Origin: an uncultured Bacillota bacterium
Lineage (GTDB): Bacteria; Bacillota_I; Bacilli_A; RF39; UBA660
DNA length: 64,000 nt
NCBI GenBank assembly: GCA_947644695.1
Contig: CANSAJ010000004.1
Coordinates: forward strand, 5,750-69,749
Direction of reading: 5' to 3'
A program made the translations under genes and the position numbers. Below are positions 2,849 through 31,887 of the stretch, in pieces. The notes beneath the pieces were generated by a model that saw only the letters and a list, made by a program, of their open reading frames with translations, made no database searches and was not told where the DNA came from. Every line of letters begins with the position of its first letter. Position 1 is the stretch's first letter.

Positions 2849-2849
2849 A

Positions 2850-3539: not shown

Positions 3540-3542
3540 TAA

Positions 3543-5618: not shown

Positions 5619-5802
5619 TGAAAAGATTGTAAGTAGGATAAATGAATTAAATGAAGATGAAAAATTGAAGGAATTGATGTTTACAATTTTGGAGATGGAG
5701 AATTATGGACATTATAGATATATTGATAGATATGATACTTTAATTCAAGAATATATTAGTAAAGAGAAGGTAGGAGAGGATAGTAATGGTCAAGATAAAT
5801 AA
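5608..5802 (+). CDS. Small hypothetical protein (64 aa), operon member
   Basis: ATG is preceded by GGAGTG. It overlaps the helicase stop by 11 nt and the next gene by 17 nt. No motif was recognised. Confidence 0.45.
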   Translation: MAISEKIVSRINELNEDEKLKELMFTILEMENYGHYRYIDRYDTLIQEYISKEKVGEDSNGQDK

Positions 5803-7792: not shown

Positions 7793-7793
7793 T

Positions 7794-8237: not shown

Positions 8238-8358
8238 AAAATGAATTAAAAGGAGACTATGATTTTGGGATTCTCGGGCTCTTTTTTTGTGTATTTACTA
8301 GTATAGGGTTTGTTTTTCTGCTATAATTTATTATGAGAAATAATTGGTAGGAGGGATT

Positions 8359-8715
8359 ATGTCAAGGATAGTAAAAAATAAAGAATTGGTAAATACAAGA
8401 TTAGCAACAAATTATGGGGGGTGGATGTATTGTGAAAAGTGTGGCGAAAATATAGGATATTTATGTTATTCAACTTATGATAAGATCGAATTAGATTATA
8501 AATGTAATTGTGGAAATCATGGTAGTGTTTTATTGGATTTTGAAGATAGTAAGGTAGGAAAAAGTAGTACTTCAGAGTTAGTTATGGTGAAAACAAGATT
8601 TTGTTGTCCAAAAGATAATGAGCCTTTAATTACAATACTGGATAAAAAAGTGACTAATTATGATTTGAAGATTACTTGTAAATCTTGTGAAAGTATTTAT
8701 CAGAAGTCAAAATAG
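8359..8715 (+). CDS. Cys-rich protein with two zinc-ribbon-like CxxC pairs
   Basis: CEKCGEN...CNCGNHG and CCPKDN...CKSCES. AGGAGGG lies just upstream of ATG 8359. Confidence 0.5.
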   Translation: MSRIVKNKELVNTRLATNYGGWMYCEKCGENIGYLCYSTYDKIELDYKCNCGNHGSVLLDFEDSKVGKSSTSELVMVKTRFCCPKDNEPLITILDKKVTNYDLKITCKSCESIYQKSK

Positions 8716-13581: not shown

Positions 13582-16500
13582 TGAAAAGATTTAGAATTAC
13601 TAAAATAGGACTTTTAAATTTTTGGCTTTATGATGAAGAAGAGTATGATTTTTATGGTGGAAAATTAATTTTAAGAGGTATAAATGGTAGTGGGAAATCA
13701 GTTACTATGCAATCTTTTATTCCTCTTATTTTAGATGGAAATAAAAGTCCTGATAGACTAGATCCTTTTGGTTCTAAAGAAAGAAAAATAGAAGATTATA
13801 TTTTGGGAGACGCTGATGGAGTTCAAAAAGAGGAGTCAATCGCATATTTATATATGGAAACATATTATGAAGAAGAGAATAAATATATAACTATTGGACT
13901 TGGATTTAGAGGGAGAAAAGGAAAGCCAGTGGAATCATGGGGATTTGCTCTTAAAGATGGTAAAAGAGTTTTAAAAGATTTTTATTTATATAAAGATCCT
14001 GTTAATAAGATTCCACTTTCTAAAAATGAACTTAAGAGTAGACTTGGAGATTTTAATGAGTTTACGGATACTATGAAAGATTATAAAGCTATGGTTAACA
14101 GGCTATTATTTGGATTTCCAAATTTAGATGTTTATGATGAATTTATTAAGCTTTTATTACAGTTAAGAAGTAACAAACTTTCAAAAGATTATAAACCTAC
14201 TAATTTAATAGATGTTTTGAATAAAGTTTTACAGCCTTTATCTGAAGAAGATTTAAGACCATTGTCTTTAGCTATAGAGCAAATGAATGGTGCTAAGGAA
14301 AGAATAGAAACTTTAGAAAGTAATTTAAAAAAATTAAATGATTTTTTGAGAGTTTATAGAAATTATAATGAGGCTGTAATTCTTGAAAAAGCAAGAAACT
14401 ATAAGAAAGAAAATGATGAATATAATTTAGAAAAGAAACAACTTTTAGATACAGAAAATGAAATAAATAGTTTGAAAGAAGAATTAGAAAATAAAAATGT
14501 TAGACATGGTGAAGTTTTAGAAGAACTTGATATAAATTTTGAAAATAAGAAACAATTAGATAATACAGATTTAAATAAAAAGGTTGAATCTCTTTCAAGA
14601 ATTAATGAAAGTATTAATGTATTAAATGATAAAGTTAGTGTTTTAGATAAAAATTTAGAAAATGATGAAGAAACTAAACTTGAACTTGATATTAAAATTA
14701 GTGAAGTATCTAATGAGATTTATGGCTTAAAAAAAGATATTACAGATTTGTGTGCTTCATTAAAAGATACTAAAGATGATAGTTATTTTGGTGAAATAGC
14801 GTTTTTTGTGGATGAACTTATGCTTAATATGGATAAAGAATTTTCTTTTGATAGTATTTTTATGTCACTTAGAAGTTATTTAGAGAAAATTAATTTGTTG
14901 ATAACTTATTTTGAAGAACAATCAAAGTTATTTAGTGAGAGTGAAAGTACAAGAATTGAAAGAGAAAAGCTTGAAAGGGATTATAAATTCTTAGAGAGTG
15001 ATATTAAAGGACTTGAGAGTAAACGCAAAGATTCGATTAAAACATGGGAAGAAGATTTTATAAATTTAATAAATAATAATAAATTTTTAAAATTAAGTGA
15101 TTTAAATAAGAAACAGATTTTTGGTTATATTGAAGATTATAGTTTAAGTAATTTTGAAAAAATTGTTAGATTATATAAGTCATGTTCAAATGATTTAATA
15201 AATAATATTATTCGTAATAATTTAATTTTAGATAGTAAGAAAGATAAAAAAAGAGAAGAACTTTCTTTATTAGAAATTCAGTATGATGAAGTTAATAATG
15301 CTGATACTTTAGATCTTCCTACAAATTTAGATACAAACAGAATTCTTGAAGAAAATGGTATTAATAATATACCTTTGTATAAGTGTATTGAATTTAAAAG
15401 TGATGTTAGCGATAATTTTAGAGATAAGATAGAGGCGGCATTATTTAGTTCTAATATTTTGAATGCTAGAGTTATAAATGAAAGTGACTTATCGAGAGTG
15501 AGAAATCTAGATGTTGAAGTTTTATTTCTAACTAAGGCTTCTAAGAAAAAGAATAATTTACTTAAGTATTTTGATGTAAATGCAGATGATGTAAACATTA
15601 ATAAAAAATATATCTGTGAAATTCTAGAAAGCATAAGCGTTAGTGAAGAAGATGAAGTTTCAATTTTAGTAGATGGTATTTCAAAGATAGGCGCACTTAG
15701 AGTAAAAGCTGATAAGAAATATAAGCAAATGTATATTGGTTATAAGAAAAGGCTAGAGCTTAAAAATAAGAAATTAAGTGAACTAAAAGAAAGCATGAAT
15801 TTTATTAAAAACGAAATATCTAAAATTGATGATTTAATTTTGGATGGGAACGCACAAATTTCTGTTATTGAAGAAGAAGAGAGCAATTTACCTAACAATG
15901 ATAATATTAATGAAATAATTGCTAAAATAAATGAATTAAATATTAAGCTTAGTTATAATGATGAAAGACAAAAGGAGTTAGAAAAAGTTCTTTCTTTATT
16001 TGATTTAAAACTAGGTGAGTTAAGGGATAAAATAATGGAAAATAGCAAAGGATTAAGTATTCCGCTTAATTTGGAACAGTATAAGATAGTTTCTAAAGTT
16101 GTTGTCTCTATTAAAGAAAGTTTGCAAGAATTAAAGAATTTACATTCAAATTATGTTAATAAGTTAATAACTATTGAAGGTTTTAAAGAGCGCTTAGATT
16201 ATATTATAAATAATATAGCATTTGTAAAAGCTGAAAGAAATGAAAAAGAGAGAGAATTAAATGTTAATATTGCTTCAAGAGATAAGATAAATGAACTTTT
16301 AAATAGTAAAGAGTATGTAGACGAGAAAGAAAAAATTATAGAATTAGATAGTTTGATTAAAGACCTGTCAAATGAAAAAGAAGACTTGGTTAGAAGTATT
16401 TCTAAATTAGAAGAAAGATTAAAAAATAAAAATGAATTATTTGCTACACTTAAAGAAAGTGTTAACTTTAAAGAAAATCGTTCTAATGTATTTAGAGAAG

Positions 16501-17657
16501 TGTTCTTGAGAGAATATAACTTAGGTTACCTTTATAAGAATGTGGATGACGATATTGATCTAAAAGTTAATAGTGTTATTAGTGATTATGGAAGTAAAAA
16601 GAATATTTCTGTGGTTGAGACTTCAAATAATTTTTGGGCTATGTATAATAAGTATAGTTTGGATTTAGCTGATTATTCGTTTAAAAGTATTACATTATTT
16701 AATGATTACGATGGAGATAATGAAATATTTAAAAAGATATATGATAGTAATGTAAGAATAGATATAACGGCTATGTATCAAGGTGTGTCAGTATCAGCGA
16801 TAGAATTAGCTGATAAGATATATGATGATATTGAAGAAGGAAAATTGCTTATAGATAAAGAAGATAGACATTTATTTGAAGATATTTTACTAAATACTGT
16901 TGGTAATAAGATTAGAGATAGGATACATGCATCAAATGAGTGGGTTAGTAAAATAAATGAAATTATGAGAAAAATGCAAGAAAATAGTGCGCTTAGTTTT
17001 AAGCTTGTGTGGAAAAGTGTTAGTGCAGAGAGCGAAGGAGAATTAGACACTCGAGAAATAGTTAGAATGTTAAAGATGGAACCCGGTCTTTTAAGTGATG
17101 TTGACAGTGTGAAGATAACTAATCATTTTAGAAGTAAACTTAGAAAAGCAGAGGAACTTTATAAGGATAGTTATGTTTCGTTTTATAAGATTGTTGAAGA
17201 TATTTTAGATTATAGAAATTGGTTTTCTTTTATACTTATGTATCAGAGAAAAGGAGATAATTTAAAAGAACTTACTGATAAAACTTTTTCTAAGTTTAGT
17301 GGTGGAGAAAGAGCTAAAAGTATGTATATACCTCTTTTTGCCAGTGTTTTTGCTAAATATAATATGGCAAGAAGTGATGCTCTTAGAATAATCGCCTTAG
17401 ATGAGGCTTTCGCGGGAGTAGATGAAGATAATATTAGAGAAATGTTTGGTATTCTTAAATTTTTAGATATTGATTATATTATTAATTCTCAAGTTCTATG
17501 GGGTGATTACGATACTATTCCCGATATTTCAATATGCGAACTTATTAGACCTGCTAATAGTCAAGTTGTAACTGTAGAAAGATATAGATGGAATGGTAAA
17601 TATAAAGAGATTATTAATAATAGAAAAGAGTATAATGAGGAGTTAGAAAATGCATGA
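13578..17657 (+). CDS. jetC: Wadjet JetC (MksB-like SMC ATPase)
   Basis: 1359 aa. Walker A is LRGINGSGKSVT, followed by about 1000 aa of coiled coil. C-terminal signature FSGGERAKS and Walker B RIIALDEAFAGVDEDN. Confidence 0.9.
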   Translation: MMKRFRITKIGLLNFWLYDEEEYDFYGGKLILRGINGSGKSVTMQSFIPLILDGNKSPDRLDPFGSKERKIEDYILGDADGVQKEESIAYLYMETYYEEENKYITIGLGFRGRKGKPVESWGFALKDGKRVLKDFYLYKDPVNKIPLSKNELKSRLGDFNEFTDTMKDYKAMVNRLLFGFPNLDVYDEFIKLLLQLRSNKLSKDYKPTNLIDVLNKVLQPLSEEDLRPLSLAIEQMNGAKERIETLESNLKKLNDFLRVYRNYNEAVILEKARNYKKENDEYNLEKKQLLDTENEINSLKEELENKNVRHGEVLEELDINFENKKQLDNTDLNKKVESLSRINESINVLNDKVSVLDKNLENDEETKLELDIKISEVSNEIYGLKKDITDLCASLKDTKDDSYFGEIAFFVDELMLNMDKEFSFDSIFMSLRSYLEKINLLITYFEEQSKLFSESESTRIEREKLERDYKFLESDIKGLESKRKDSIKTWEEDFINLINNNKFLKLSDLNKKQIFGYIEDYSLSNFEKIVRLYKSCSNDLINNIIRNNLILDSKKDKKREELSLLEIQYDEVNNADTLDLPTNLDTNRILEENGINNIPLYKCIEFKSDVSDNFRDKIEAALFSSNILNARVINESDLSRVRNLDVEVLFLTKASKKKNNLLKYFDVNADDVNINKKYICEILESISVSEEDEVSILVDGISKIGALRVKADKKYKQMYIGYKKRLELKNKKLSELKESMNFIKNEISKIDDLILDGNAQISVIEEEESNLPNNDNINEIIAKINELNIKLSYNDERQKELEKVLSLFDLKLGELRDKIMENSKGLSIPLNLEQYKIVSKVVVSIKESLQELKNLHSNYVNKLITIEGFKERLDYIINNIAFVKAERNEKERELNVNIASRDKINELLNSKEYVDEKEKIIELDSLIKDLSNEKEDLVRSISKLEERLKNKNELFATLKESVNFKENRSNVFREVFLREYNLGYLYKNVDDDIDLKVNSVISDYGSKKNISVVETSNNFWAMYNKYSLDLADYSFKSITLFNDYDGDNEIFKKIYDSNVRIDITAMYQGVSVSAIELADKIYDDIEEGKLLIDKEDRHLFEDILLNTVGNKIRDRIHASNEWVSKINEIMRKMQENSALSFKLVWKSVSAESEGELDTREIVRMLKMEPGLLSDVDSVKITNHFRSKLRKAEELYKDSYVSFYKIVEDILDYRNWFSFILMYQRKGDNLKELTDKTFSKFSGGERAKSMYIPLFASVFAKYNMARSDALRIIALDEAFAGVDEDNIREMFGILKFLDIDYIINSQVLWGDYDTIPDISICELIRPANSQVVTVERYRWNGKYKEIINNRKEYNEELENA

Positions 17658-18927
17658 TTATACTAAGTTCTTTAAGAGTAATTCGGGCTATAATAGATTT
17701 GTAAAAGGTATTTATGATAAATATAGGTCTTTAGGCAAGTTTGCTGGTGTTGTAAAGTTAAAAAATTTATCTTCTGATGAGGCTAATGTACTTTCAAGAC
17801 TTTTTGGGGTTTCAATGAATTCTTCTGAAAATGTTAATTTGTCTATAAAGAAATTTTTGAAAATTATGAGCGAGTCTAAGTATAATGATTTTGATATTGC
17901 TACTTTTATAAGTGAATATTTTGACATTTCTTTGGAAAGTAAGAGTGCTGAAAAAGCAAAAAAAAGAGAAACTGAAATGGAATTTTATGAGCAATTTTGT
18001 GTTGGTAATTCTCTAGGTAATGCTTGGATGAGAGAAGTGGTTTCTCAACGAGACGTTTCTTTTAAAATTATTCATGAAAGGTATAATAAGGATAAGGTTA
18101 GTTTAGAAAGAGAGATTGTTAATATAATTAGTTGTATTAATAATTTACCTCAAGAGTCTACACTTTTATCTATTTATTCAGCTTCTATAACTGGAGATCC
18201 ACATTATCTTGATTTAGATGGAACCCATTCTTCTCTTTTCTTTTATGCTTTATGCTATTTGGATGAAATTAAATATCCTGTAAGTAGAGAAGATAAAATT
18301 TTGTTATTAAGTAAGTTTAATATTTTGATAGATAATTTATCTAATTCAGTTATTACTTATAAATTGATAAGTGATAGTAATGCTATTAATGAATTTTCAA
18401 AAAATGGTGAGGCCTTAGTTTTGACTATGCAAAATATTATGAATAGAAAGGTCTTTAGTGGAATTAATAATTGTGTGTTTGTTTTTGAAAATCCTTCTAT
18501 ATTATCTTATATAATTGCAAATAAACTTAATATATCAGTTGTCATTGTTGGTGGTTTTCCTAATACATGTGTTTATTTATTGCTAGATAAACTTGTGAAA
18601 AATGGATGTGCACTTTATTATAATGGTGATTTTGATCCAGAAGGGCTTTTGATAGCCCAGATGTTAAAGGATAGATATGAGGATAAGATTAATTTATTAT
18701 GTTATGATAAAGAGAGTTATGTTAAATCTAAATCAAAAAAACTTATAAGTGAGTCTAGATTAAAGAAGTTAGATAAAGTATTCAATCGCGATTTAATAGT
18801 TATGAAAAAATTACTTTATGAAAACTGTATTTCAGGTTATCAAGAGAATTTAATGGAGATATTGAAGATGGAGGTTGAAAAGATTTTAAAATCTAACTTT
18901 TCTATTACTATTTCAGAAGATAGATAA
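17650..18927 (+). CDS. jetD: Wadjet JetD (Toprim/topoisomerase VI-like nuclease subunit)
   Basis: C-terminal Toprim motifs FVFENPS (Glu) and YYNGDFDPEGLLIA (DxD). It overlaps the jetC stop by 8 nt. Confidence 0.85.
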   Translation: MHDYTKFFKSNSGYNRFVKGIYDKYRSLGKFAGVVKLKNLSSDEANVLSRLFGVSMNSSENVNLSIKKFLKIMSESKYNDFDIATFISEYFDISLESKSAEKAKKRETEMEFYEQFCVGNSLGNAWMREVVSQRDVSFKIIHERYNKDKVSLEREIVNIISCINNLPQESTLLSIYSASITGDPHYLDLDGTHSSLFFYALCYLDEIKYPVSREDKILLLSKFNILIDNLSNSVITYKLISDSNAINEFSKNGEALVLTMQNIMNRKVFSGINNCVFVFENPSILSYIIANKLNISVVIVGGFPNTCVYLLLDKLVKNGCALYYNGDFDPEGLLIAQMLKDRYEDKINLLCYDKESYVKSKSKKLISESRLKKLDKVFNRDLIVMKKLLYENCISGYQENLMEILKMEVEKILKSNFSITISEDR

Positions 18928-19774: not shown

Positions 19775-20833
19775 ATGACCAAAAAAGAAGAATGGAATAT
19801 TGAATTATCACAATATATAAAACAAGGTGAACCAAGTAAAATTGAAAAAGCAAAAAATTGGGAAACTGCTATTGGGTTACAGAAGGTAGATGGTCTTAAT
19901 CCCTCTAAATATTTAATTGGAACTGCTAAAGAACATATTGAAGGAAATATAGATATTAAAGAAGTAGAAAGCAGAATAAATAATTATTATAAGGTTCTTA
20001 ATGAAAGAAAAATAGAAGAACAAGAAAGTACTGAAGAAGCAGATAAAGTATCAGTAAGAATAACTGAGATTTTAAGTGAAAATTCATTTAATTTTAATCC
20101 TACAGAACTTATTAGTATTCATGCAAGATTATTTAAAGGTGTATATAAACATGCTGGTCAATTAAGAGATTATGATATGACAAAGAATGAATGGGTGTTA
20201 AATGATGACACAGTAACTTACGCTCCATATGGAACGCTTATGGCAGCTTTACAATATGATTTTGAACAAGAAAAAAATTTTTCATATAAAGATTTATCAT
20301 TTGATGAATCAATAAAACATTTATGTAAATTTACTTCAAATATTTGGCAAGTTCATCCGTTTTGTGAAGGTAATACGAGAACAACAGCTGTATTTGTTAT
20401 TAAATATTTAAGAACATTTGGATTTAAAATTAATAATGATGTCTTTGCAGAAAATTCTTGGTATTTTAGAAATGCTTTGGTAAGAGCTAATTATAAAAAC
20501 TTTGAAAAAAATGTATTCGAAGATATATCATTTTTAGAAAAATTTTTTTATAATCTTTTATCTAATGCAAATTATGAATTAAAAAATAGATATGTTCATA
20601 TTGATTATGAACAGGAAAATAATCAAGAAAAGACGATACATAACGAATATACATTGGAAGAACAAGCTATTATTAATATTATCAAAAACAATCCAACAAT
20701 TAAACAAGAGGAGATTGCTAAAGAAATTAATAAATCAGTAAGGACTGTAAAAAATAGAATGATAGATATGCAGGAAAAAGGAATAATAGAAAGAAAAAAT
20801 GGGAAAAGAAATGGTGAATGGATTATTTTATAA
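19775..20833 (+). CDS. Fic-domain protein with a C-terminal winged-helix DNA-binding domain
   Basis: Fic core motif HPFCEGNTRTTAVF (HPFx[D/E]GNxR). C-terminal wHTH-like IKQEEIAKEINKSVRTVKNRMIDMQEKGIIERKNGKRNGEW. AGGAGG RBS. Confidence 0.85.
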   Translation: MTKKEEWNIELSQYIKQGEPSKIEKAKNWETAIGLQKVDGLNPSKYLIGTAKEHIEGNIDIKEVESRINNYYKVLNERKIEEQESTEEADKVSVRITEILSENSFNFNPTELISIHARLFKGVYKHAGQLRDYDMTKNEWVLNDDTVTYAPYGTLMAALQYDFEQEKNFSYKDLSFDESIKHLCKFTSNIWQVHPFCEGNTRTTAVFVIKYLRTFGFKINNDVFAENSWYFRNALVRANYKNFEKNVFEDISFLEKFFYNLLSNANYELKNRYVHIDYEQENNQEKTIHNEYTLEEQAIINIIKNNPTIKQEEIAKEINKSVRTVKNRMIDMQEKGIIERKNGKRNGEWIIL

Positions 20834-20859: not shown

Positions 20860-21003
20860 ATGATGGGAAATTTTTATAGGAAATCAATGTTGAAAAAGTG
20901 TAATTTACATATTCATACAATAAAATCGGTATATGATAATGGCAAATATGGTGATGAAGAAAAGTATAATGGTTTATTAAAAAAACTAATAGGTGGTGAA
21001 TAG
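20860..21003 (+). CDS. 47-aa micro-ORF, possibly a remnant of a PHP-domain gene
   Basis: AGGAAGTGA RBS. Its stop lies 1 nt before the hsdR ATG. CNLHIHTIKSVYDNG resembles the N-terminal (D/N)LHxHTxxSxxDG motif of PHP phosphoesterases. Confidence 0.25.
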   Translation: MMGNFYRKSMLKKCNLHIHTIKSVYDNGKYGDEEKYNGLLKKLIGGE

Positions 21004-21004
21004 T

Positions 21005-24000
21005 ATGGAGTTTAGTGAAAATACAAGAGTTAAAATACCAGCTTTAGTACATGCTACAAGGCTTGGCTATAAATACTTATCTTTAAAAGAAGTAAAAGAA
21101 CAATTAGATTCTAGAATGAATATTTTTAAAATTATATTTAAAGATAGCATAAATAAAATTAATAATACTGATTTAAAAGAAAGTGATATTGATAGAATAC
21201 TTGATGAAATAGATATTGAATTAAATAATAAAGATTTAGGTAGAAAATTTTATAAAACATTATTAGATGGATTGGATGGAATTAAATTAATTGATTTCGA
21301 TAATGCTGAGAGAAATACTTTAAATGTTCTGACTGAATTACCATATGAAAATGGAGAAGATAATTTTAGACCAGATGTAATTATGCTTATTAATGGTATG
21401 CCACTAGGGTTTATTGAAGTAAAAAAGCCAAATAATAGAGACGGTATATTAGCTGAGAGAAATAGAATTAATGATAGGTTTCATAACGAAAAATTTAGAA
21501 AATTTATGAATATTACTCAATTATTAGTGTTTTCTAATAATCAAGATTATAATAATGATTCTATTGTACCAATAGAAGGAGCTTTTTATGGTACTCCAAG
21601 TGATAAAAGTGTTTTCTTTAACTGTTTTAGAGAAGAAGAGCCATCTATTTTTGATAAGATTGGTGATATATCAGATTCCGAAGAAAACTTTATATTGAAA
21701 GATAACAATTATGTTTCAATAAAAGGAACTAATGAATATAGTACTAATTTAAGTAGAATGACACCCACAAACAAATTGATAACATCATTATTTCACAAGA
21801 ATAGAATATTTAAATTGTTAAGATATGGAATAACTTATGTAGAAAAAGCTAATAAGAATGGTGTTGTTGAAATACAAAAACATATTATGAGATATCAACA
21901 ATTATTTGCAACTTTTGCTATTGAAAATAAAATATCAGAAGGAGTTAAAAAAGGCATTATTTGGCATACTCAAGGTTCTGGTAAAACTGCATTAGCATAT
22001 TTTAATGTTAAATATTTAACTGATTATTATGCAAAACAATCTAAAGTCGCTAAATTCTATTTTATAGTTGATAGACTTGACTTATTAAAACAAGCTTCTG
22101 AAGAATTTGAAGCTAGAGGTTTAAATGTTGTTAAAGTTAATTCTAGAGAAGACTTTAAGAAAAATATTGCAATGACTGGCGAGGTATCTAAAACAGGCAA
22201 ATTAACTATCAATGTTGTTAATATTCAAAAGTTTTCTGAAGATTCAACTGTAAAAGATTCTGATTATAATATTGATGTACAAAGAATTTACTTTTTAGAT
22301 GAAGCTCATAGGGACTATAATCCTAGAGGAAATTTCTTAGCTAATTTAATGGCATCTGATAGAAATTCAATTAAAATAGCATTAACAGGCACACCTTTAG
22401 TAAATCAAGAAATAGATGGTATTAAATATTCTTCAAAGGATATTTTTGGAGATTATATTCACAAATATTATTATAATAAATCTATTATGGATGGATATAC
22501 TTTAAAATTAATTAGAGAAGGTGTACAAGCTGAATACAAAGTTAAAATAGCTGAAGCACTAGATCAAGTTAGAAAAATATTAAAAGATGCAAAAGAAAGT
22601 GATATAGTATCTCATCCAGTTTACACAGAAGCATTAGCTGAATACATAACAAATGATTTTGGGGCTTCTAGAGTTAGATTTGGTGATGATACTATAGGTG
22701 CTATGATTGTCTGTGATTCACAAGCACAAGCTAGAAATCTATTTAAATCATTAGATAAATATGATTTTTCAAAAATTCTTATTCTTTATAATGAAGATAA
22801 TAAACAAGTTAGAGAAGAAGAAATAAAAGCTTATAAAGAAGGAAAAATAGATATTTTAGTGGTTGATAATATGTTATTAACTGGATTTGATGCACCTAGA
22901 CTTAAAAAATTATATTTAGGAAGAGTAATTAGAGCTCATAACTTATTACAAGCATTAACGAGAGTTAATAGACCATATAAAAATTTTAGACATGGATATG
23001 TTGTTGATTTTGCAGATATTAGAGATGAATTTGATAAAACAAATCAGATATATTTTAATGAATTACAAGAAGAATTAGGAGAAGACTTTGAACATTATTC
23101 AAGTATCTTTGTATCAAGTGAAGATGCTGAAAAAAGAATTTGCGAAATAAAAGATAAATTATTTTTATTTGATTTTTCAAATAAGGAAATATTAAGTTCT
23201 CAAATTAGTTCTTTAGGGAAAAAAGATTTAATTGATTTAAGAAGGTTAGTTAGGGATTATAAAGATTTATATAATATAATTAAATCTTTAAATTATACTG
23301 ATTTGATTGAAAAAGTCGATATATCTAGTGTTGATAATATGTCTAGAGAAATTAATAGAAGATTAGATATTCTTAATTTATCAGAAGATGTTAATAGTAA
23401 TGATGGATCTAATCTCCTAAATACTGTGTTCGAAAATTTGGATATTAAATTTAGGAAAATTAATGAGGGTGAACTCGTTATATCTGATAAATATTTAGAT
23501 AAAATAGAGGAAGTACGAAAAAAGTTTATTGATAATATTGATAAAGATGATAAATACTATACTTCATTAGCGAATGAATTTAATAATTTATTTAAAATGA
23601 AAAACATAGAAGAATTAACCATTGATGATATTAATGATAATATGGAAAAATTAACTGAAATTGAAAAGAGTATTGATCAATTGAATTTAAAGAATAGTAT
23701 GCTTCTTAATAAATTACTTGGTGATGAAAAGTATGTAAAAATTTATAAAAGGGTTAAAGATAGAATATCAGATTTTAGCGATTTAAAATTGGTAGAAATC
23801 CTTTTAAAAATTAAAAATCAAGTTGATGATTTGATTTTAAGAAGAAATGATGTTTTGGATAATGTTGAATTCTTTAAAAGCGAAGTTGGTAGATGTGTTT
23901 ATATGACATCTAATGAAGAAACAAAGATTATTGATGAAATAGATTTCTTTGTAGACTTAATAGTAACAATGTATGAATTTGAAAGGAGGGTAAGTAATAA

Positions 24001-24007
24001 TGGATAA
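21005..24007 (+). CDS. hsdR: Type I restriction enzyme, R subunit
   Basis: About 1000 aa. The N-terminal nuclease region contains the motif GFIEVKKP. Helicase motif I is HTQGSGKTALA, motif II YFLDEAHR, and a later motif is LTGFDAPRL. Confidence 0.9.
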   Translation: MEFSENTRVKIPALVHATRLGYKYLSLKEVKEQLDSRMNIFKIIFKDSINKINNTDLKESDIDRILDEIDIELNNKDLGRKFYKTLLDGLDGIKLIDFDNAERNTLNVLTELPYENGEDNFRPDVIMLINGMPLGFIEVKKPNNRDGILAERNRINDRFHNEKFRKFMNITQLLVFSNNQDYNNDSIVPIEGAFYGTPSDKSVFFNCFREEEPSIFDKIGDISDSEENFILKDNNYVSIKGTNEYSTNLSRMTPTNKLITSLFHKNRIFKLLRYGITYVEKANKNGVVEIQKHIMRYQQLFATFAIENKISEGVKKGIIWHTQGSGKTALAYFNVKYLTDYYAKQSKVAKFYFIVDRLDLLKQASEEFEARGLNVVKVNSREDFKKNIAMTGEVSKTGKLTINVVNIQKFSEDSTVKDSDYNIDVQRIYFLDEAHRDYNPRGNFLANLMASDRNSIKIALTGTPLVNQEIDGIKYSSKDIFGDYIHKYYYNKSIMDGYTLKLIREGVQAEYKVKIAEALDQVRKILKDAKESDIVSHPVYTEALAEYITNDFGASRVRFGDDTIGAMIVCDSQAQARNLFKSLDKYDFSKILILYNEDNKQVREEEIKAYKEGKIDILVVDNMLLTGFDAPRLKKLYLGRVIRAHNLLQALTRVNRPYKNFRHGYVVDFADIRDEFDKTNQIYFNELQEELGEDFEHYSSIFVSSEDAEKRICEIKDKLFLFDFSNKEILSSQISSLGKKDLIDLRRLVRDYKDLYNIIKSLNYTDLIEKVDISSVDNMSREINRRLDILNLSEDVNSNDGSNLLNTVFENLDIKFRKINEGELVISDKYLDKIEEVRKKFIDNIDKDDKYYTSLANEFNNLFKMKNIEELTIDDINDNMEKLTEIEKSIDQLNLKNSMLLNKLLGDEKYVKIYKRVKDRISDFSDLKLVEILLKIKNQVDDLILRRNDVLDNVEFFKSEVGRCVYMTSNEETKIIDEIDFFVDLIVTMYEFERRVSNNG

Positions 24008-25652
24008 GGAAAGACAATTAATAGTTAAAACATCAAGAATGATAGATGATCTAAAAGCAGTATGTGGTGAATATGGATTATCTAATACGGGAAATGAATA
24101 CAAAATTATTGCTGATTCTTTCCTTTATAAATATTTAAATGATAAATTCTTATATGAATTTAAAAGAATAGATAAAAATCTATCTAAGGGTTCTACAACA
24201 AAAGAAGTAGAAGAAGAAATAATGAAACTTAGTCCTGTAGAAATGTCTAAATATAGATATGGATTAGGTGCAAATGTAGCATATATTAGAAAGGAATTTT
24301 TGGTTAGTTATTTATTTAATAACAAAAATTCAACTACTCCTAAGTTTTATGAATTGTTTGATAATGCTTTAGATGGAATTTCAAACGATAATATTGATAT
24401 ATTCTCAGTAAGAACTGGTAGTAAAGAAAAAATAAAATTATTTAGTCCTATTTCTCAATATATTATTGAATCAAATAAGAAGAATGATTTTGCTAAAGCT
24501 ATAATTGATAAATTAGTAGAATTTTCTTTTGATGAAGTATTTGAAGAAAAATATGATTTCTTTGCAACTATATTTGAATATTTAATTAAAGATTATAATA
24601 AAGATTTTGGTAAGTATGCAGAATACTATACACCTAATTCAATTGCTAGAATTATTGCTAAAATATTAGTACCTGATACTGACAAAGTAAGAAATGTATC
24701 TATATATGATCCAGCAGCTGGATCTGGTACATTATTATTAGCTTTAGCACATGAAATAGGTGAAGAAGACTGCACATTATATACTCAAGATATTTCTCAA
24801 AAATCAAATGAATTTTTAAGATTAAACTTGATATTAAATAATTTAGTACATTCATTGGATAATGTTGTACATGGTAATACATTATTAAATCCTGCGCATT
24901 TAAATAAAGAAGGGAATAAATTAGCACAATTTGATTACATAGTAAGTAATCCGCCTTTTAAAACTGATTTTAGTGATTATAGAGATAAGTTAGAGGATGA
25001 TAAATATTCAGATAGATTTTTTGCTGGTGTTCCAACAATACCAAAAAAAGAAAAAGATAAAATGTCGATATATCTTCTTTTTATACAGCATATAATTTAT
25101 TCTTTAAAAGACAATGGGAAAGCTGCTATAGTTGTTCCAACTGGTTTTTTGACAACTCAAAATAAAATAGAATTCAAAATAAGAAAATATTTAATAGAGA
25201 ATAATTACATTGAAGGAATCATTTCAATGCCATCTAATATTTTTGCCAACACAGGAACGAATGTTTCGATTATATTTATTAGTAGAATTAAAATTAATCA
25301 TAATGTATTTATGCTAGATGTTACATCTTTTGGAAAAAAAGAAAAAGATGGAAAAAATCAAAGAACAATATTATCAAAAAACGAACTAAATACAATTGTG
25401 GATTTATATACAAAACAAGAAGTCAATAAAAAAATTAGTGTCTTAACAGATACTGATACAATAAAAAATAATAAATTTTCATATGCACCTAATCAATATT
25501 TTGTTGTGGACATAGTCAAAGATAATATTTCAAAAGAAAGATTTAAACTGGATATGTCGAATTTTAGAAGAGAATTAAAGGATAGCTTATCTAAATCAGA
25601 AAAATTATATAAAGAGTTGCTTGAGGAATTGGAGAAAATAAAATATGAATAA
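24000..25652 (+). CDS. hsdM: Type I R-M N6-adenine DNA methyltransferase, M subunit
   Basis: SAM-binding motif IYDPAAGSGTLL and catalytic VSNPPFK. It overlaps hsdR by 8 nt. Confidence 0.9.
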   Translation: MDKERQLIVKTSRMIDDLKAVCGEYGLSNTGNEYKIIADSFLYKYLNDKFLYEFKRIDKNLSKGSTTKEVEEEIMKLSPVEMSKYRYGLGANVAYIRKEFLVSYLFNNKNSTTPKFYELFDNALDGISNDNIDIFSVRTGSKEKIKLFSPISQYIIESNKKNDFAKAIIDKLVEFSFDEVFEEKYDFFATIFEYLIKDYNKDFGKYAEYYTPNSIARIIAKILVPDTDKVRNVSIYDPAAGSGTLLLALAHEIGEEDCTLYTQDISQKSNEFLRLNLILNNLVHSLDNVVHGNTLLNPAHLNKEGNKLAQFDYIVSNPPFKTDFSDYRDKLEDDKYSDRFFAGVPTIPKKEKDKMSIYLLFIQHIIYSLKDNGKAAIVVPTGFLTTQNKIEFKIRKYLIENNYIEGIISMPSNIFANTGTNVSIIFISRIKINHNVFMLDVTSFGKKEKDGKNQRTILSKNELNTIVDLYTKQEVNKKISVLTDTDTIKNNKFSYAPNQYFVVDIVKDNISKERFKLDMSNFRRELKDSLSKSEKLYKELLEELEKIKYE

Positions 25653-26817
25653 AATATCTGTTGGCAAAGATTTATATGTTAAAGGAAGAATTGGATGGAG
25701 AGGTCTTAATAAAGATGAATATTTAGATCAAGGTGATTATAAAATAATAAATGGAACTGCATTAATGGATGGATTTATTGATTGGAATAAATGTGGCTAT
25801 ATTACAAAGAAAAGATATGACGAATCTCCTGAAATAATGTTAGAAGAAAATGATATTTTAATAACAAAAGATGGTACAATTGGGAAAATAGGATATGTTA
25901 AAAAAATTGCATGTAAATGTAGCGTGGCATCCGGAATATTTGTTGTAAGAAATACCAAAAAAGATATTTTGGATACTGATTATTTATATCACTTATTAAA
26001 TAGCCATATCTTTAAAGATTTTGTTTTTAGAAATAAAGCAGAAGGCAGTACTATTAATCACTTATATCAAAGGGAGTTAGATAAGTTTGTTATTGAGTTG
26101 CCAAGTATAGATATACAAAGAAAAGTATCGTCAATACTAAATAAAATAGATGACCTTATAAACAATAATATATATACAAATAGAATAATTGTTAATAGTA
26201 TTAAAGAAAAGTATGATTATATTTTTTATAACCTTGATAATAAATATAACGATTTGGTATTTTCTAAGGAATTAAATAGAAATATTATAAAATCATGGAA
26301 AGTAGTAAAATTAGATGCAGTATTAAAAAAAATTCCAAAGAATAAGCAGTATAAAGTAAGTGAATATTTAGATCATGGTGAATACCCCATAATGGATCAA
26401 AGTTCAGACTATATATGTGGCTTTTGTAATGAAAAAGAAAATTTATTGGATTTAGGAGATTGTGTTATATTTGGAGATCATACTAGAAAATTAAAATATG
26501 TGAATTTTCCATTTGCTCGAGGTGCTGATGGAACAAAGATATTGTGTTCTAGTGAAAAAAATCTTAGTAATTATCTTATGTACCTTCAATTATTAGATTA
26601 TAATATATCTAATCAGGGTTACTCAAGATATTATAAGTATTTAAAGGAAAAATATGTATTTATACCAGATGATTATACTTCAAATATATTTAATAAAGGA
26701 ATTAGACAGCATATGAATGTTTTAAGGAATAACATTGAATTGAATATAGCATTAGGTAGATTAAAAATGTATATTTTACCGTTATTGATGAATGGTCAGT
26801 TAAAAATAGAAGATTAA
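25645..26817 (+). CDS. hsdS: Type I R-M specificity subunit (two target-recognition domains)
   Basis: 390 aa. Central conserved spacer LPSIDIQRKVSSILNKIDDLINNN and a C-terminal coiled region. It overlaps hsdM by 8 nt. Confidence 0.85.
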   Translation: MNKISVGKDLYVKGRIGWRGLNKDEYLDQGDYKIINGTALMDGFIDWNKCGYITKKRYDESPEIMLEENDILITKDGTIGKIGYVKKIACKCSVASGIFVVRNTKKDILDTDYLYHLLNSHIFKDFVFRNKAEGSTINHLYQRELDKFVIELPSIDIQRKVSSILNKIDDLINNNIYTNRIIVNSIKEKYDYIFYNLDNKYNDLVFSKELNRNIIKSWKVVKLDAVLKKIPKNKQYKVSEYLDHGEYPIMDQSSDYICGFCNEKENLLDLGDCVIFGDHTRKLKYVNFPFARGADGTKILCSSEKNLSNYLMYLQLLDYNISNQGYSRYYKYLKEKYVFIPDDYTSNIFNKGIRQHMNVLRNNIELNIALGRLKMYILPLLMNGQLKIED

Positions 26818-26903
26818 TTTCGAAGTTATAAGATAAAAGTAGCCGCAAAAATGATATGGTTTCTTTTATTGACAAGTTCAATGATCTTCTTTTTGTTTAT
26901 TTG

Positions 26904-26912
26904 TGGTATAAT
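26904..26912 (+). promoter_or_regulatory. Extended -10 (TGgTATAAT) placed to start transcription at the candidate retron a1 repeat
   Basis: TGGTATAAT ends 4 nt before the a1 repeat (26917). A TTGACA at 26869 is too far away (32 nt) to pair with it. Confidence 0.35.
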
Positions 26913-26916
26913 TCTA

Positions 26917-27063
26917 TTAAGGGATTTGCATATCACGAGCGATACGCAGTGTGCTTAACAATGGTTACATTGTTAAATATAATATTTTAGGACCTGTGAC
27001 ATATTATATATTAACTTTTAAATAATTATTCAATAACTATAAATGTTAGAAATCCCTTCTTAA
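26917..27063 (+). ncRNA. Candidate retron msr-msd non-coding RNA
   Basis: Inverted repeats TTAAGGGATTT (26917-26927) and AAATCCCTT(CT)TAA (27050-27063) bracket the region just upstream of the RT gene. A G (26928) follows a1. Perfect 9-bp hairpin TTAACAATG-GTTA-CATTGTTAA (26955-26976), a second 9-bp stem ATATAATAT/ATATTATAT (26977-27009), and a locally GC-richer segment at 26921-26955. Confidence 0.45.
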
Positions 27064-27075
27064 GTTGGTGGTAGG

Positions 27076-28737
27076 ATGTATAATGAATTTGGGCGAATTC
27101 AACACTTTAAAAATATTGAAACAAAATATGATTTACTATATGTTTTAAATGTAAGTTCTAAAAAATATAACTATTTGATTTATCAGAAAAAAAATTTATA
27201 TACATCATTTTATATAAATAAAAAACAAGGTGGATTTAGAAAAATTCTATCTCCGTGTTTTGATTTAAAGAAAATTCAAAAAGAATTAAACATAATATTG
27301 AGAAATAATTATGAGTTTAATAAGGAAACTGTTCATGGTTTTGTTAAAGATCATAGTATAAAAACTAATGCAAATGTTCATAAAGAGGCTAATTATGTAG
27401 TAAATATCGATTTAAAAAACTTTTTTGATACTATTCATTTTGGAAGAGTTAGAGGAATGTATATGAAATCACCCTTTAATTTTTCAGACTATATTGCAAC
27501 AAATTTAACAAAAGTAGTATGCTATGAAAAGAAATTACCACAAGGTGCTCCAACATCTCCAACAATTTCTAACATTATTTGTTATAGAATGGATAGAGAA
27601 CTAGCACATTTATGTAATAAATATAATTGTAGATATACACGGTATGCTGATGATATTACGATTTCAACAAAAATGCTTTATTTACCAAAGGAAATAGCTA
27701 AGTTCAGTAATGGACAAGTAATTTTGTCTAATAATATTATAGATATAATAAAAAAAGAAGGGTTTATTATTAATTATGATAAACTTAAGATTAGCCCTAA
27801 ATCTAATAGGCAAGAGGTAACAGGATTAATTGTGAATAAAAAGGTAAATGTTCAAAAGGTATATATTAAAAAATTAAGAGCATTATTAAATAATGTTTCA
27901 AAATATGGTTTTTATTTAGAAGGATGTAAATATTTTAAAAAAAGTTTGAATGATTGTTCAAAAAAGGAGTTTGTAGAACATAAATTTATTAATGTATTAA
28001 AAGGCAAAATTGAATTTTTAAAAATGGTAAGAGGTCTTGATGATTATGTATATATAAAATACGCATCTTTATTTAATGAATTAATTGATTATGATTATTT
28101 TGATACCGATTATGGATTGACTATGAAAGAATTTATAGAGAAAAGGGTATATCCGTTGATAAGTTATGATGAAATGGTACAAGGTACGTGCTTTATGGTG
28201 GATGAAATTGGTATGATTACATCGACTCATGTATTAATTTCACCACAATCTTTTATTAATGAAAAAAAATATAAAGAAATAGAATTAAAAGATAAATTTA
28301 ATTTTTGTGATGTAGGAAGTAAGCCTTTCTATATTTTTGATCATTATAATAGAAAATATATAATAAACCCTGAAATAACAAGGGAACAAATAAATTCAGA
28401 TATACTATTTTATAATTGTCTACCTTCTAAAAAAAGATTTAAAATTAATACGAATTATGAACCCAAAATTGGAGAGAAGGTTTATATTGCAGGATATGGA
28501 GAATTTAAGGATTTTAAAACATCGTCAATTAATTATATTGAAAGTAATGTAACAGGCTATACAGAGTTTTTAGGAAGAAAGGTCGTGTGTATTAATAGTA
28601 AAATATATCATGGTATGAGCGGAGGGCCAGTATTAAATTCTAATCGTGAAGTAATTGGAATAATATATGCAGGACTTAATTTGGATGATAATGATAAAGT
28701 TATTTCTAAAACAAATGGTTTTGTATTATTTCAATAA
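27076..28737 (+). CDS. Retron-type reverse transcriptase fused to a C-terminal trypsin-like serine protease domain
   Basis: RT motifs NIDLKNFFDTI, LPQGAPTSP and YADD (aa 190-193), plus the retron-typical RQEVTGLIVN. C-terminal region (aa ~355-553) has TSTHVL (His385), SDILF (Asp442) and HGMSGGPVL (Ser515). Confidence 0.85.
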   Translation: MYNEFGRIQHFKNIETKYDLLYVLNVSSKKYNYLIYQKKNLYTSFYINKKQGGFRKILSPCFDLKKIQKELNIILRNNYEFNKETVHGFVKDHSIKTNANVHKEANYVVNIDLKNFFDTIHFGRVRGMYMKSPFNFSDYIATNLTKVVCYEKKLPQGAPTSPTISNIICYRMDRELAHLCNKYNCRYTRYADDITISTKMLYLPKEIAKFSNGQVILSNNIIDIIKKEGFIINYDKLKISPKSNRQEVTGLIVNKKVNVQKVYIKKLRALLNNVSKYGFYLEGCKYFKKSLNDCSKKEFVEHKFINVLKGKIEFLKMVRGLDDYVYIKYASLFNELIDYDYFDTDYGLTMKEFIEKRVYPLISYDEMVQGTCFMVDEIGMITSTHVLISPQSFINEKKYKEIELKDKFNFCDVGSKPFYIFDHYNRKYIINPEITREQINSDILFYNCLPSKKRFKINTNYEPKIGEKVYIAGYGEFKDFKTSSINYIESNVTGYTEFLGRKVVCINSKIYHGMSGGPVLNSNREVIGIIYAGLNLDDNDKVISKTNGFVLFQ

Positions 28738-28918
28738 TTTTTTTGTTTACTTCTTGGTGTATAAACTTGTAATTTTAGAAATATGCAAGTCCTTTTTTGC
28801 GAACTTTTACATTTTATAAATATGTCAAATTGTAATTAGGTTGCTTATTTGAAGAGAATAAATTATCTAATAAAATAGTATTTTAAATCATACCTTTTAA
28901 ATAGGAGGTATGTTTTTT

Positions 28919-29044
28919 ATGCCAATAAATAAACAATTAAAAATAAATAATGAATATTTTAGTGATAAAGATTTTCAAGATATTATATATAATTATTTAA
29001 TAAAAATGTTTAAAATATCAAATAATGATTTTGAATTATTCTAA
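28919..29044 (+). CDS. 41-aa micro-ORF between the RT and the recombinase
   Basis: AGGAGG lies 11 nt upstream of ATG 28919. No motif was recognised. Confidence 0.25.
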   Translation: MPINKQLKINNEYFSDKDFQDIIYNYLIKMFKISNNDFELF

Positions 29045-29092
29045 AAATGTGTTATAAATATAATGTCTTGGAGAATATTTCATATGAACTAA

Positions 29093-30700
29093 ATGGATAG
29101 GAGGAATATGTATAACAATTTAGTTAGTCCTACAAATTATAAAGTAGGAATATATATAAGATTGTCTCAAGAAGATTCTGATAAAAAATATGAATCAGAT
29201 AGTGAGAGCGTTGTTAATCAAAGAAATATATTAACATCTTATTTAAAAGCTAATAATTATATTTTAATAGAGGAATATATAGATGATGGATATTCAGGAA
29301 CAAATTTTGATAGACCTGGATTTCATAAATTAATTGAAGATATTAACGATAAAAAAATAAATATGGTAATAGTAAAAGATTTATCTAGGCTAGGTAGAGA
29401 TCATGTTATGACAGGATATTATATAGAAACGTTTTTTCCAGAAAATGATGTTAGGTTTATTTCAATAATGGAAAGCTATGATAGTGCTAAAAGGCAAGCA
29501 AGTAATGACTCATCAACTTTTATTGTTGCTTGTAATGATTATTATAGTAAGCAAAATTCTTATAAAATTAGAGATGTATTGCATTCTAAAAAAGTTGCAG
29601 GTCAATTTGTTGGAAGCAAACCATCTTATGGATATATGAGAGATTCTAATGATAAAGGACATTTAATACCTGATCCAAAAGTTGCTGATAATGTTAGAAA
29701 TATATTTAAATGGTTTTCTGAAGGATTAAATCTAAAAGAAATAGCAGATAAATTAAATGATTTAGGAATTCAAACGCCTAGTACTTATAAAAATAGTCCT
29801 AATAAAATAGAAAAGTGGAATTATGATACTGTTAAGTCGATATTGCAAAATAGGATTTATACAGGTGATATGATCCAGAATAAGGAAATGAAAATAAATT
29901 ATAAATCTAAAAAGCGAATACATTTAGATGAGCAAAATTGGATAATAGTTGAAAATACTCATGAGCCTTTAATTGATAAAGCAACTTTTTTTGAAATAAA
30001 TAATAAAGGTAGATATACAATACCTAAAACAAAAACAAAGAGAGAAAAAAGATTATTAGAAAATTTATTTGTTTGTAAAGAATGTGGTAATAGCCTAACA
30101 ATTAATTACCGAGAATCAAAAGATTGTTGGAGTATTAATTGTAATAGATTTACTAGATATTCTGTCAATAATAGATGTGTTTCACATTATATGCTTTATA
30201 ATCCATTAGAAGAGTTAATCCTAAAAAGAGTAAAATCTACTTTAGATAAATTTATGAAGAAATTAGATATAGATAATTTAGCTAATGAAGTTTATAAAAG
30301 ATTAAGTAATGAAAGTAATAATAACTTTAAGGAGTTAGATAAACTTGTTGAAAAAAGAGAAAAATGTCATAAAAAGCTAGTAATAATGTATAATGATAAA
30401 CTTGAAAACAAAATTGAATCTTATACTTATGAAATACTTAAAGAAAGCATAGAAAAAGAAATACAAGAATTAACTTCCAAAATAGAAAAGTTAGAAAATC
30501 TTAAAAGTCAAAAAGTAGTATATAATACTAAATTATCAGATGTCGTTGATAAAATAAAAAAATTATTGGATTTGGATCATCCAACTCGAGAACTTTTATT
30601 AGATGTTATAGATAAAATTGTGATAGATAAAGATAGAAATATAGAAATTTTCTACAAATTTGGTATTGCTAAAACTGATAAATTAAATAATAAAAATTGA
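29093..30700 (+). CDS. Large serine recombinase
   Basis: N-terminal resolvase-type catalytic region VGIYIRLSQED (Ser), DDGYSGTNFDRPGF and KDLSRLGRD. Recombinase domain, zinc ribbon CKECGN...C and C-terminal coiled coil. ATG 29108 is an alternative start. Confidence 0.9.
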   Translation: MDRRNMYNNLVSPTNYKVGIYIRLSQEDSDKKYESDSESVVNQRNILTSYLKANNYILIEEYIDDGYSGTNFDRPGFHKLIEDINDKKINMVIVKDLSRLGRDHVMTGYYIETFFPENDVRFISIMESYDSAKRQASNDSSTFIVACNDYYSKQNSYKIRDVLHSKKVAGQFVGSKPSYGYMRDSNDKGHLIPDPKVADNVRNIFKWFSEGLNLKEIADKLNDLGIQTPSTYKNSPNKIEKWNYDTVKSILQNRIYTGDMIQNKEMKINYKSKKRIHLDEQNWIIVENTHEPLIDKATFFEINNKGRYTIPKTKTKREKRLLENLFVCKECGNSLTINYRESKDCWSINCNRFTRYSVNNRCVSHYMLYNPLEELILKRVKSTLDKFMKKLDIDNLANEVYKRLSNESNNNFKELDKLVEKREKCHKKLVIMYNDKLENKIESYTYEILKESIEKEIQELTSKIEKLENLKSQKVVYNTKLSDVVDKIKKLLDLDHPTRELLLDVIDKIVIDKDRNIEIFYKFGIAKTDKLNNKN

Positions 30701-30744: not shown

Positions 30745-31887
30745 GGTGGCGATGGTGCAGAAGTAATATATGCCCTTCGTAATAATTCTAGATTTTCTGA
30801 TTTAATTTTAGAAGAACTAGCTAATGAAGGACAGAATATTAGAAAAAATTTTCAACAACGACTTCCTTCTAATCCAATAAAAGACTACTATTTTATACAT
30901 CGTAATACTCCTGATACAGAAGCTGTGATAGTGGAATATGGTTTTCTTGATAGTACTAAAGATGATGTGAATCAGCTTAAAAATGATTGGAAGGATTATG
31001 CTGAAGCTGTTGTGAGAGCTATTGCTAAATATAAGAATATTTCATATACAGCGCCTTCTGGAGGGGATTATTATACAGTTCAAAAGGGAGATTCATTATG
31101 GAGTATTGCTACTAAATATGGTTTAACAGTTAACGAACTTAAAGAACTTAATGGTATTACTAATAATGTAATACATGTTGGACAGAATCTTAAAGTTAAA
31201 GTTGAGAGTGAAAAACCTGTTGAAGATTATCTTGTTTATACAGTAAAGAGTGGAGATTCATTATGGAAAATAGCAAGTAAATATGATACAACTGTAGCTA
31301 CACTTAAAAGTATAAATAATTTAAAAAGCGATAATTTAACAATTAATCAACAGTTATTAGTTCCTAAAAATAAAGATATGGATATAACTATAGATCAAGA
31401 TGATAAAGGTATAACCTATGTGGTAAAAAGTGGAGATTCACTATGGAAGATAGCTAATAGTTATGGGGTTAGTGTTGATAAAATAAAAAGTGCTAATAAT
31501 TTGAAAAGTGATGTATTAAGTGTTGGTCAGAAATTATTGATACCAGTAAGTGACGTGAATGTTGAAGAAAAACCTACTGAACCAACAAGTGGAGTTAGTT
31601 ATGTAGTTGTTAGTGGAGATAATTTATATTCTATAGCTAATAAATATGGTGTTAGTGTAGATGATATAAAAAGACTTAATAATCTTAGTAGTAATACACT
31701 TAAAATAGGTCAAGTTTTAAAAATTCCTGGAACAGATCAGTATGTAACTTATACAGTAAAGAGTGGAGATTCATTATGGAGTATTGCTAATAAATACGGT
31801 GTTAGTGTAAATGAACTTAAAAATATTAATAATTTAGAAGGAAGTTTATTAAGTATTGGTCAAAAGTTATTAATTCCAACAAAATAA
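30745..31887 (+). pseudogene. N-acetylmuramoyl-L-alanine amidase, 3' segment (rest of Amidase_3 plus five LysM repeats)
   Basis: The frame is open from 30745: GGDGAEVIYALRNNSRF...VIVEYGFLDS. Five LysM units follow (Y.V..GDSLW.IA.KYG..V..LK..N.L....L..GQ.L.IP). It is in frame with the ORF-track start 30925. Confidence 0.8.

Follow-up and report, generated by a model that had tools for sequence, protein, structure and literature searches.

Type XI retrons were described by Mestre et al. in 2020 (PMC7736814) as a single open reading frame (ORF) consisting of an N-terminal retron reverse transcriptase (RT) and a C-terminal trypsin-like protease, for which no recognisable non-coding RNA (ncRNA) module was reported. 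A 2026 preprint repeats that the canonical form of type XI lacks a recognisable ncRNA, and its candidate ncRNAs are limited to type XI-like lineages without the protease. The validated ncRNAs in an experimental census by Khan et al. in 2024 (PMC10849725) include 'clade 8, type XI', with ncRNA sequences for five type XI retrons from an uncultured Ruminococcus (1163), Clostridium sp. SS2/1 (1165), Paenibacillus (1168), Nitrospira (1143) and Sphingomonas (1122). A further one-protein retron, the RT-Toprim fusion Eco2 (PMC12916289, PMC12405507), forms a trimer with its nuclease caged by branched multicopy single-stranded DNA (msDNA); upon degradation of the msDNA by DenB, a phage nuclease, the Toprim domain is set free and cleaves tRNA. 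Here, we analysed an RT-protease gene and its upstream region in a stretch of 64,000 nucleotides from an uncultured Bacillota bacterium (assembly GCA_947644695.1, contig CANSAJ010000004.1, forward-strand positions 5,750 to 69,749), which we refer to as the window. An initial annotation, made from the letters of the window and without database searches, had proposed a retron with an msr/msd locus at 26904-28737. We conclude that the locus is very probably a complete canonical type XI retron, i.e., a one-gene anti-phage system together with its ncRNA. Established for this reading are the assignment to the family, catalytic motifs in intact form, a covarying conserved RNA structure, a conserved promoter and the context of a defence island.

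The type number, which the initial annotation had not assigned, was obtained by profile typing. The best PADLOC model was RT-Protease_XI (E 3.6e-149, 496 bits), which matched residues 8-543 of the protein to positions 2-499 of the 510-position profile, corresponding to type XI of Mestre et al. (PMC7736814). The runners-up were two clade-8 fusions which matched by their RT part, RT-TIR_XII (377 bits, E 3.7e-113, residues 7-338) and RT-Toprim_I-C (361 bits). NCBIfam gave sub-threshold matches of the RT part to the models for Ec67 fusions and TIR retrons, and the matches to the models for RTs of group II introns and for Drt2 were weak (E 7.5e-16 and 1.5e-10, respectively) and well under their cut-offs. 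The placement in clade 8 and type XI is one by profile scores. A sequence search of the PDB returned retron Ec67/Eco2 as the closest entry (E 2e-52), with Ec86 and further retron RTs next in rank. For a Foldseek search, we used an AlphaFold2 model of the monomer which was computed from an alignment of 71 sequences and reached a predicted local distance difference test score of 91.6. This search placed Eco2 at the top (E 1e-28, with an identity of 33% over some 368 columns), then other retron RTs, with the RTs of group II introns, defence-associated RT (DRT) systems and abortive infection (Abi) systems far behind at E 1e-11 or worse. The C-terminal domain matched DegS. In the PADLOC, PDB and Foldseek searches, the retron matches came first, with no sign of a clustering with non-retron RTs, as the initial annotation had expected for an RT of the retron kind.

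The RT-protease gene (27076-28737, plus strand, like all elements of the locus described below) codes for 553 amino acids. Its RT domain (residues 47-252, about 27214-27831; Pfam RVT_1, E 3e-26) is connected by a helical linker (residues 260-355, approximately) to the trypsin-like protease domain (about residues 370-529, 28183-28662; Pfam Trypsin_2, E 3e-10). The motifs named in the initial annotation were all present at the residues claimed, with NIDLKNFFDTI starting at residue 110, YADD at 190, RQEVTGLIVN at 245, TSTHVL at 382, SDILF at 441 and GMSGGP at 513, and the same applies to the proposed catalytic triad of His385, Asp442 and Ser515. The retron signature NAxxH is represented by NANVH at residues 98-102, next to YADD at 190-193 and VTG at 248-250. 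Alignments of 19 and 71 homologues showed that the RT signatures N98-A99-x-x-H102, Y190-A-D-D193 and T249 of VTG are invariant, as are His385 and G-x-S515-G-G of the protease. The column of Asp442 contains Asp in 44 of the 71 homologues; in the remaining sequences, the Asp is shifted by two positions towards the N-terminus, into the usual D-x-A motif, so that all 71 possess the triad Asp. Judged by its sequence, the window ORF has its full length and retains all catalytic and family-invariant residues. The start codon is preceded by a ribosome-binding site (RBS), GGTGG, at 27067-27071, and purine-rich GGTG, AGGA or GGAG motifs are located 5-12 nt upstream of the start codons in all relatives.

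The intergenic gap of 258 nt upstream of the gene (26818-27075) separates it from a type I restriction specificity gene (25645-26817) and contains the elements expected for a retron ncRNA. A predicted promoter is represented by an extended -10 element, TGgTATAAT, at 26904-26912; we found no good match to a -35 element at a spacing of 17 nt, the sequence TTGACA at 26869-26874 being 32 nt away. Transcription is predicted to start around 26919-26921, at the 5' edge of the a1 arm of a closing inverted repeat. This 5' arm (TTAAGGGATTT) covers 26917-26927 with a core at 26919-26927, and the 3' arm a2 extends over 27050-27063 with a core at 27050-27058 (AAATCCCTT, then cttAA). The core AAGGGATTT of a1 pairs with that of a2 at nine of nine positions, and the outer TT/AA extension of the helix across a 3-nt bulge is not conserved in relatives. 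Directly 3' of a1 follows the candidate branching (priming) guanosine, G26928. The next element, stem-loop 1 of the msr (CAC-GA-GCG-ATA-CGC-A-GTG, 26934-26951), is the most conserved one of the entire RNA and had been missed in the initial annotation. It is followed by stem-loop 2 (26955-26976), in which TTAACAATG at 26955-26963 pairs with CATTGTTAA at 26968-26976 over nine of nine positions around a 4-nt loop, GTTA; this is either the last hairpin of the msr or straddles the msr/msd boundary. The predicted msd, the template of the DNA made by reverse transcription (RT-DNA), covers 26977-27048 with inferred boundaries and consists of a hairpin of ATATAATAT (26977-26985) with ATATTATAT (27001-27009), again paired at nine of nine positions with a 15-nt loop, and an AT-rich tail. 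The motif ATGTTAGA at 27043-27050 adjoins a2. No terminator-like site was detected between a2 and the ATG of the RT-protease gene. A minimum-free-energy fold suggested an additional pairing of G26928-C-A with TGC at 26952-26954, which we rejected as the pairing is lost in the related loci L093 and L095 and in census ncRNA 1163.

The inverted-repeat pair, the two perfect 9-bp hairpins, the G after the first arm and the extended -10 element were all exactly as the initial annotation had described them. Its remark that this stretch is less AT-rich than its surroundings holds for the 5' half (26917-26976, 38% GC) and fails for the msd half with 16% GC, and the whole ncRNA has 26.5% GC vs. 26.3% for the window. 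In dinucleotide shuffles of the gap, a 9-nt long-range repeat was obtained in 15%, two 9-bp hairpins in 1.3% and all three features in 0.1% of the cases. The repeats in the window alone are suggestive, not compelling, and become convincing only through the homologous loci.

We fetched the loci for eleven homologues with 91% to 41% identity to the window protein from metagenome contigs by exact-protein look-ups. A scan of genome contigs yielded mostly RT-only clade-8 matches (I-C, XII and cyanobacterial) and about 29 full-length RT-protease loci. All fetched loci showed a gap of about 190-340 nt before the RT gene with the same layout and different genes beyond, including those for GmrSD, type I and type III restriction enzymes, a DpnII system, a Zip transporter and a serine recombinase. 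The gap starts with TGnTAnAAT, a1 a few nt further on, a G and the hairpin CATATCAC-GAGCGnTACGC-aGTG, and continues with a second hairpin (its loop being GGTTA-like in most loci), a variable AT-rich stretch, ATGTWAGA, a2, the purine-rich RBS and the ATG. The two arms of the closing helix co-vary between the loci, as seen by comparing GGGATTT/AAATCCC of the window with GGGAAATT/AATTTCCC of L092, AAGAAGAGAACT/AGTTCTCTTCTT of L093 and GTAAAAAGGACT/AGTCCTTTTTAC of L095. In 13 of 15 related loci, the hairpin-1 core was preceded at a distance of 34-43 nt by an element resembling TGnTAnAAT, so that transcription would start at approximately the first base of a1.

For quantification, we used a sequence-based MAFFT alignment (A3) of 13 sequences, i.e., 12 loci and one experimentally validated ncRNA; census ncRNAs 1165 and 1168 were excluded from the pair counts because MAFFT failed to register them. 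In this alignment, 93% of the cells of the a1/a2 helix were paired, with compensatory changes at eight of the nine pairs, and stem-loop 1 was paired to 100%, with compensatory changes at two of six pairs (e.g., CAC/GTG to CGT/ACG). The whole structure was paired to 85.9% vs. 43-51% when the 3' partners were slid by 1-3 columns, and the observed covariation was reached by none of 500 shuffles. The G after a1 represents an invariant column ('G17'), and the columns of the motif adjoining a2 are near-invariant, reading ATGTWAGA in the relatives and AGGTAGA in census ncRNAs 1163, 1165 and 1168. Stem-loop 2 was paired in only 69% of the cells because its register shifts between loci, and both the sequence and the length of the msd region are variable.

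A covariance model built from A3 initially lost most true sites, including that of the window, when run with the default filters of Infernal. The same losses occurred in L081, L084, L091, L093 and L095, with training sequences among them; all these sequences are AT-rich. Negative results of default-filter searches on low-GC DNA are untrustworthy, and we treated them as uninformative. With the filters off, the model scored the window site at 148 bits vs. 22 bits for the next-best site in 15 kb. It also matched just upstream of the RT genes in two loci which had not been used for training, one from a Clostridium metagenome-assembled genome (MAG) with a 35% identical protein (L003, E 1e-5) and the other from an Oscillospiraceae MAG with a 36% identical protein (L002, E 7.5e-5). 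The hairpin of stem-loop 1 was also found in these two loci and in census ncRNA 1163. In addition, we determined the best long-range helix in a structure-blind manner for 35 RT-protease loci from Firmicutes, Proteobacteria, Acidobacteriota, Chloroflexota, Deinococcota, Parcubacteria and other groups, comparing each with three control windows. A helix scoring at least 29 was present upstream of the gene in 18 of the 35 loci vs. 0-1 of 35 in each control window, and the top helix of 26 loci had its a1 start at -113 to -190 and its a2 end at -3 to -30 relative to the start codon. The conserved a1/a2 pairing that the initial annotation had expected in homologous loci is thus borne out by the compensatory changes, the matches in untrained loci and the enrichment across the 35 loci.

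The census of Khan et al. (PMC10849725) allows a comparison with experimentally studied members. Its type XI ncRNAs share with the window the order of a1, a G, a small GCG/CGC hairpin, a variable msd, an A(G/T)GTAGA-like motif and a2. The G likewise follows directly after a1 in 1165, 1168 and 1143, and 1163 contains the hairpin CGTT-AGCG-TTA-CGC-AACG as a counterpart of stem-loop 1. The census ncRNAs are too diverged from that of the window for MAFFT to align all of them, and the nearest Clostridia-type relatives found in our searches share only about 35-45% identity with the window protein. The window clade also differs from 1163 by the extra perfect stem-loop at 26955-26976, which is located where the msd of 1163 begins. 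The RT-DNAs of the census members are 55-82 nt long and start 0-1 nt 5' of a2, as seen for the first templated bases of the three sequenced ones (..GGTA|GAG, ..GGCG|GAA and ..ATTG|GAA). The corresponding sequence of the window is ..GTTA|GAA, from which we predict a start of synthesis opposite A27048. The predicted msDNA would carry the 5' end TAACATTTATAG..., copied from A27048, and have its 3' end near 26963-26977. In an alignment with 1163, the 3' end of its RT-DNA maps to window position 26963 inside stem-loop 2, so that the msr/msd boundary may lie inside a hairpin in the window clade, and the predicted msDNA would be about 72-86 nt long.

For the retron of the window, msDNA synthesis with its precise ends, the position of the branch, the protection against phages and all that concerns the regulation and targets of the protease are inferred. 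A single transcript is proposed; it would be initiated at a1 from the extended -10 promoter (26904-26912) and comprise the msr-msd (26917-27063) and the RT-protease gene. Pairing of a1 with a2 would bring G26928 beside the 3' end of the msd template, and the RT would recognise the folded RNA, prime from the 2'-OH of G26928 and copy the msd leftwards from about A27048 into a branched msDNA of roughly 70-90 nt. By analogy with Eco2/Ec67, the complex of msDNA and RT may hold the fused trypsin-like protease inactive until a phage activity degrades or modifies the msDNA; the freed protease would then cut host or phage proteins, leading to abortive infection. We put forward this restraint of a cis-fused protease by msDNA tentatively, as a model that falls slightly short of being probable. 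If it is true, it represents a proteolytic abortive-infection effector under the control of a reverse-transcribed DNA, a mechanism which has so far been shown for no retron.

Several points weigh against our interpretation of the locus. Transcription, msDNA in the host and phage protection are predictions, and the model of a caged protease is taken over from a nuclease fusion, Eco2. The single-sequence fold of the region was no better than those of shuffled sequences (z = -1.34) and was not used as evidence, and a search of 26700-29100 against Rfam 15 in E-value mode gave chance-level hits only (U54 and 6A) and no retron family. Stem-loop 2 and the msd hairpin are poorly backed by covariation in the sequence-based alignment. 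The RT-DNA yields of type XI members in the census span a 40-fold range, with one member reaching just 0.02 times the level of Eco1. Finally, the literature searched contained no published mechanism, trigger, substrate or phage assay for type XI, which agrees with the view of the initial annotation that this class lacks mechanistic study.

The strongest alternative assumes that the msDNA is not made abundantly or constitutively, that the 5' RNA mainly regulates the translation or activity of the RT-protease and that reverse transcription occurs only on infection. A recent preprint (bioRxiv 10.1101/2025.10.22.683967) proposes the same for type VI retrons, and the fold could affect translation, given that a2 ends at a distance of only 13 nt from the start codon and 4 nt from the RBS. 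The census provides evidence on both sides: all three type XI members measured gave RT-DNA in E. coli, with the Sphingomonas retron (1122) at the low yield given above and those of Ruminococcus (1163) and Nitrospira (1143) at 0.26 and 0.79 times that of Eco1, respectively. Because the latter two produced abundant RT-DNA when merely expressed without phage, and the a1/a2 helix, the G and the template of the window represent the canonical priming geometry, we regard this alternative as unlikely.

A second alternative is that the locus represents a decaying remnant with recognisable sequence and lost function. Decay does occur in the lineage, as indicated by the close relative L001 from a Bacilli MAG (2839-4062), whose RT gene is 61% identical and terminates at residue 353. 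A deletion has removed the protease domain completely there, with the upstream ncRNA remaining intact (119 bits with the covariance model). L001 is a natural protease-less derivative. Its Zip and DUF4190 neighbours are those of the full-length loci L090 and L091, and the cluster of the truncated protein contains 39 member sequences on 17 contigs. The window locus is different in that its ORF is undamaged, as described above, and its promoter, RBS, a1/a2 helix and hairpin 1 fit the family consensus, making decay very improbable. The last alternative, a non-retron defence RT of Abi, DRT/UG or group II intron origin with a protease, whose upstream repeats are ordinary promoter or 5' untranslated region structure, has only the weak NCBIfam matches in its favour, which are expected for any RT, and is practically dismissed by retron models scoring about 100 orders of magnitude better, the invariant retron-specific NAxxH and VTG motifs, retron RTs as the nearest structures and an upstream RNA that covaries like a retron ncRNA.

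A functional type XI retron would also be in keeping with its surroundings. A defence island of about 25 kb carries the retron as its last cargo gene and otherwise extends upstream over 3543-26817 of the window. This island contains the genes for PbeA (3543-5618) and PbeC (5786-7792), a Wadjet type II system with JetA (10955-12415), JetB (12415-13581), JetC (13578-17657) and JetD (17650-18927), a protein with Fic and winged helix-turn-helix domains (19775-20833) that matches the PADLOC candidate system PDC-S72, and a type I restriction-modification (R-M) system consisting of hsdR, hsdM and hsdS (20993-26817). Family searches gave no hits for the ORFs at 1682-2848, 2850-3539, 7746-8237 and 8344-8715. 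The retron itself is a single-gene system: no accessory gene is conserved among the relatives, and the flanking genes, which include those for GmrSD, R-M enzymes, SIR2, DUF4190 and M78 peptidase proteins and a serine recombinase, vary in each relative examined. Among these relatives, L086 carries a gene for a SIR2-domain protein (2949-3680) 14 nt after the RT-protease stop codon, and a gene for a helix-turn-helix/M78-peptidase protein overlaps the RT stop codon in L093 (region 4670-6306) and is followed by a DUF4411 gene. These possible add-on genes are not conserved family-wide and may represent separate systems.

Downstream of the retron, a large serine recombinase is encoded at 29093-30700. 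The next gene (30925-31887) codes for a protein with five LysM repeats, whose N-terminus (IVEYGFLDS...AIAKY) resembles the end of an Amidase_3 domain. We considered that an amidase gene may have been split by the island, with the LysM gene as its 3' half, and the corresponding N-terminal amidase half was not found in the window. In L095 (1145-5786), a homologous recombinase (52% identical) and a LysM protein (48% identical) are also present, with the retron located between the two genes and not before the recombinase gene as in the window. This suggests related integrative elements which share a target gene and have the retron as their cargo. Searching phage and plasmid collections by tblastn, we obtained no close relative, the best match being a 35% identical 'reverse transcriptase domain-containing protein', and nothing suggests that the retron is carried by phages or plasmids. 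A terminator-like hairpin at 28889-28912, which follows the stop codon of the RT-protease gene at a distance of 150 nt, overlaps the AGGAGG RBS of a small ORF of about 41 amino acids (ATG at 28920) just upstream of the recombinase gene. This ORF (region 28889-29045) might code for an excisionase-like protein or a directionality factor.

Compared to the known systems, the locus is an ordinary, well-preserved case of an already catalogued class, which PADLOC and DefenseFinder would call automatically. It shows a near full-length profile match to type XI of Mestre et al. and the same architecture, and it differs from their account by the conserved and covarying ncRNA upstream of the gene in the window clade. 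The type XI-like lineages of the 2026 preprint likewise contain candidate ncRNAs flanked by a1 and a2 within 300 nt upstream of the RT, but the window system has the protease fusion and contains neither a TIR domain nor stand-alone WYL or DnaB_C accessory genes. The RT part of RT-TIR_XII is also closely related to the window RT. The closest solved structure is that of Eco2/Ec67 (type I-C1; PDB 9i2f, 9lm3 and 9s1f), which belongs to the same RT clade and is likewise a minimal system of one protein, with its effector fused in cis after a helical linker and the ncRNA located upstream. However, its effector is a Toprim RNase instead of a serine protease, and the trimeric msDNA cage, the DenB trigger and the cleavage of tRNA apply to Eco2 alone, so that their possible carry-over to type XI is extrapolated. 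The value of our analysis is modest and comparative, in providing an ncRNA consensus for a Firmicute clade of canonical protease-fused type XI retrons. This consensus consists of the extended -10 element, the a1/a2 helix, the invariant G, the GCG/CGC hairpin and ATGTWAGA adjoining a2; it agrees with the validated ncRNAs of the census and would be useful for annotating the msr and msd of type XI and for designing experiments on the protease effector. With a conserved promoter, a covariance-supported ncRNA of 147 nt and natural protease-deleted variants such as L001, this Firmicute clade would represent a compact and convenient model for testing the proposed restraint of the protease by msDNA.

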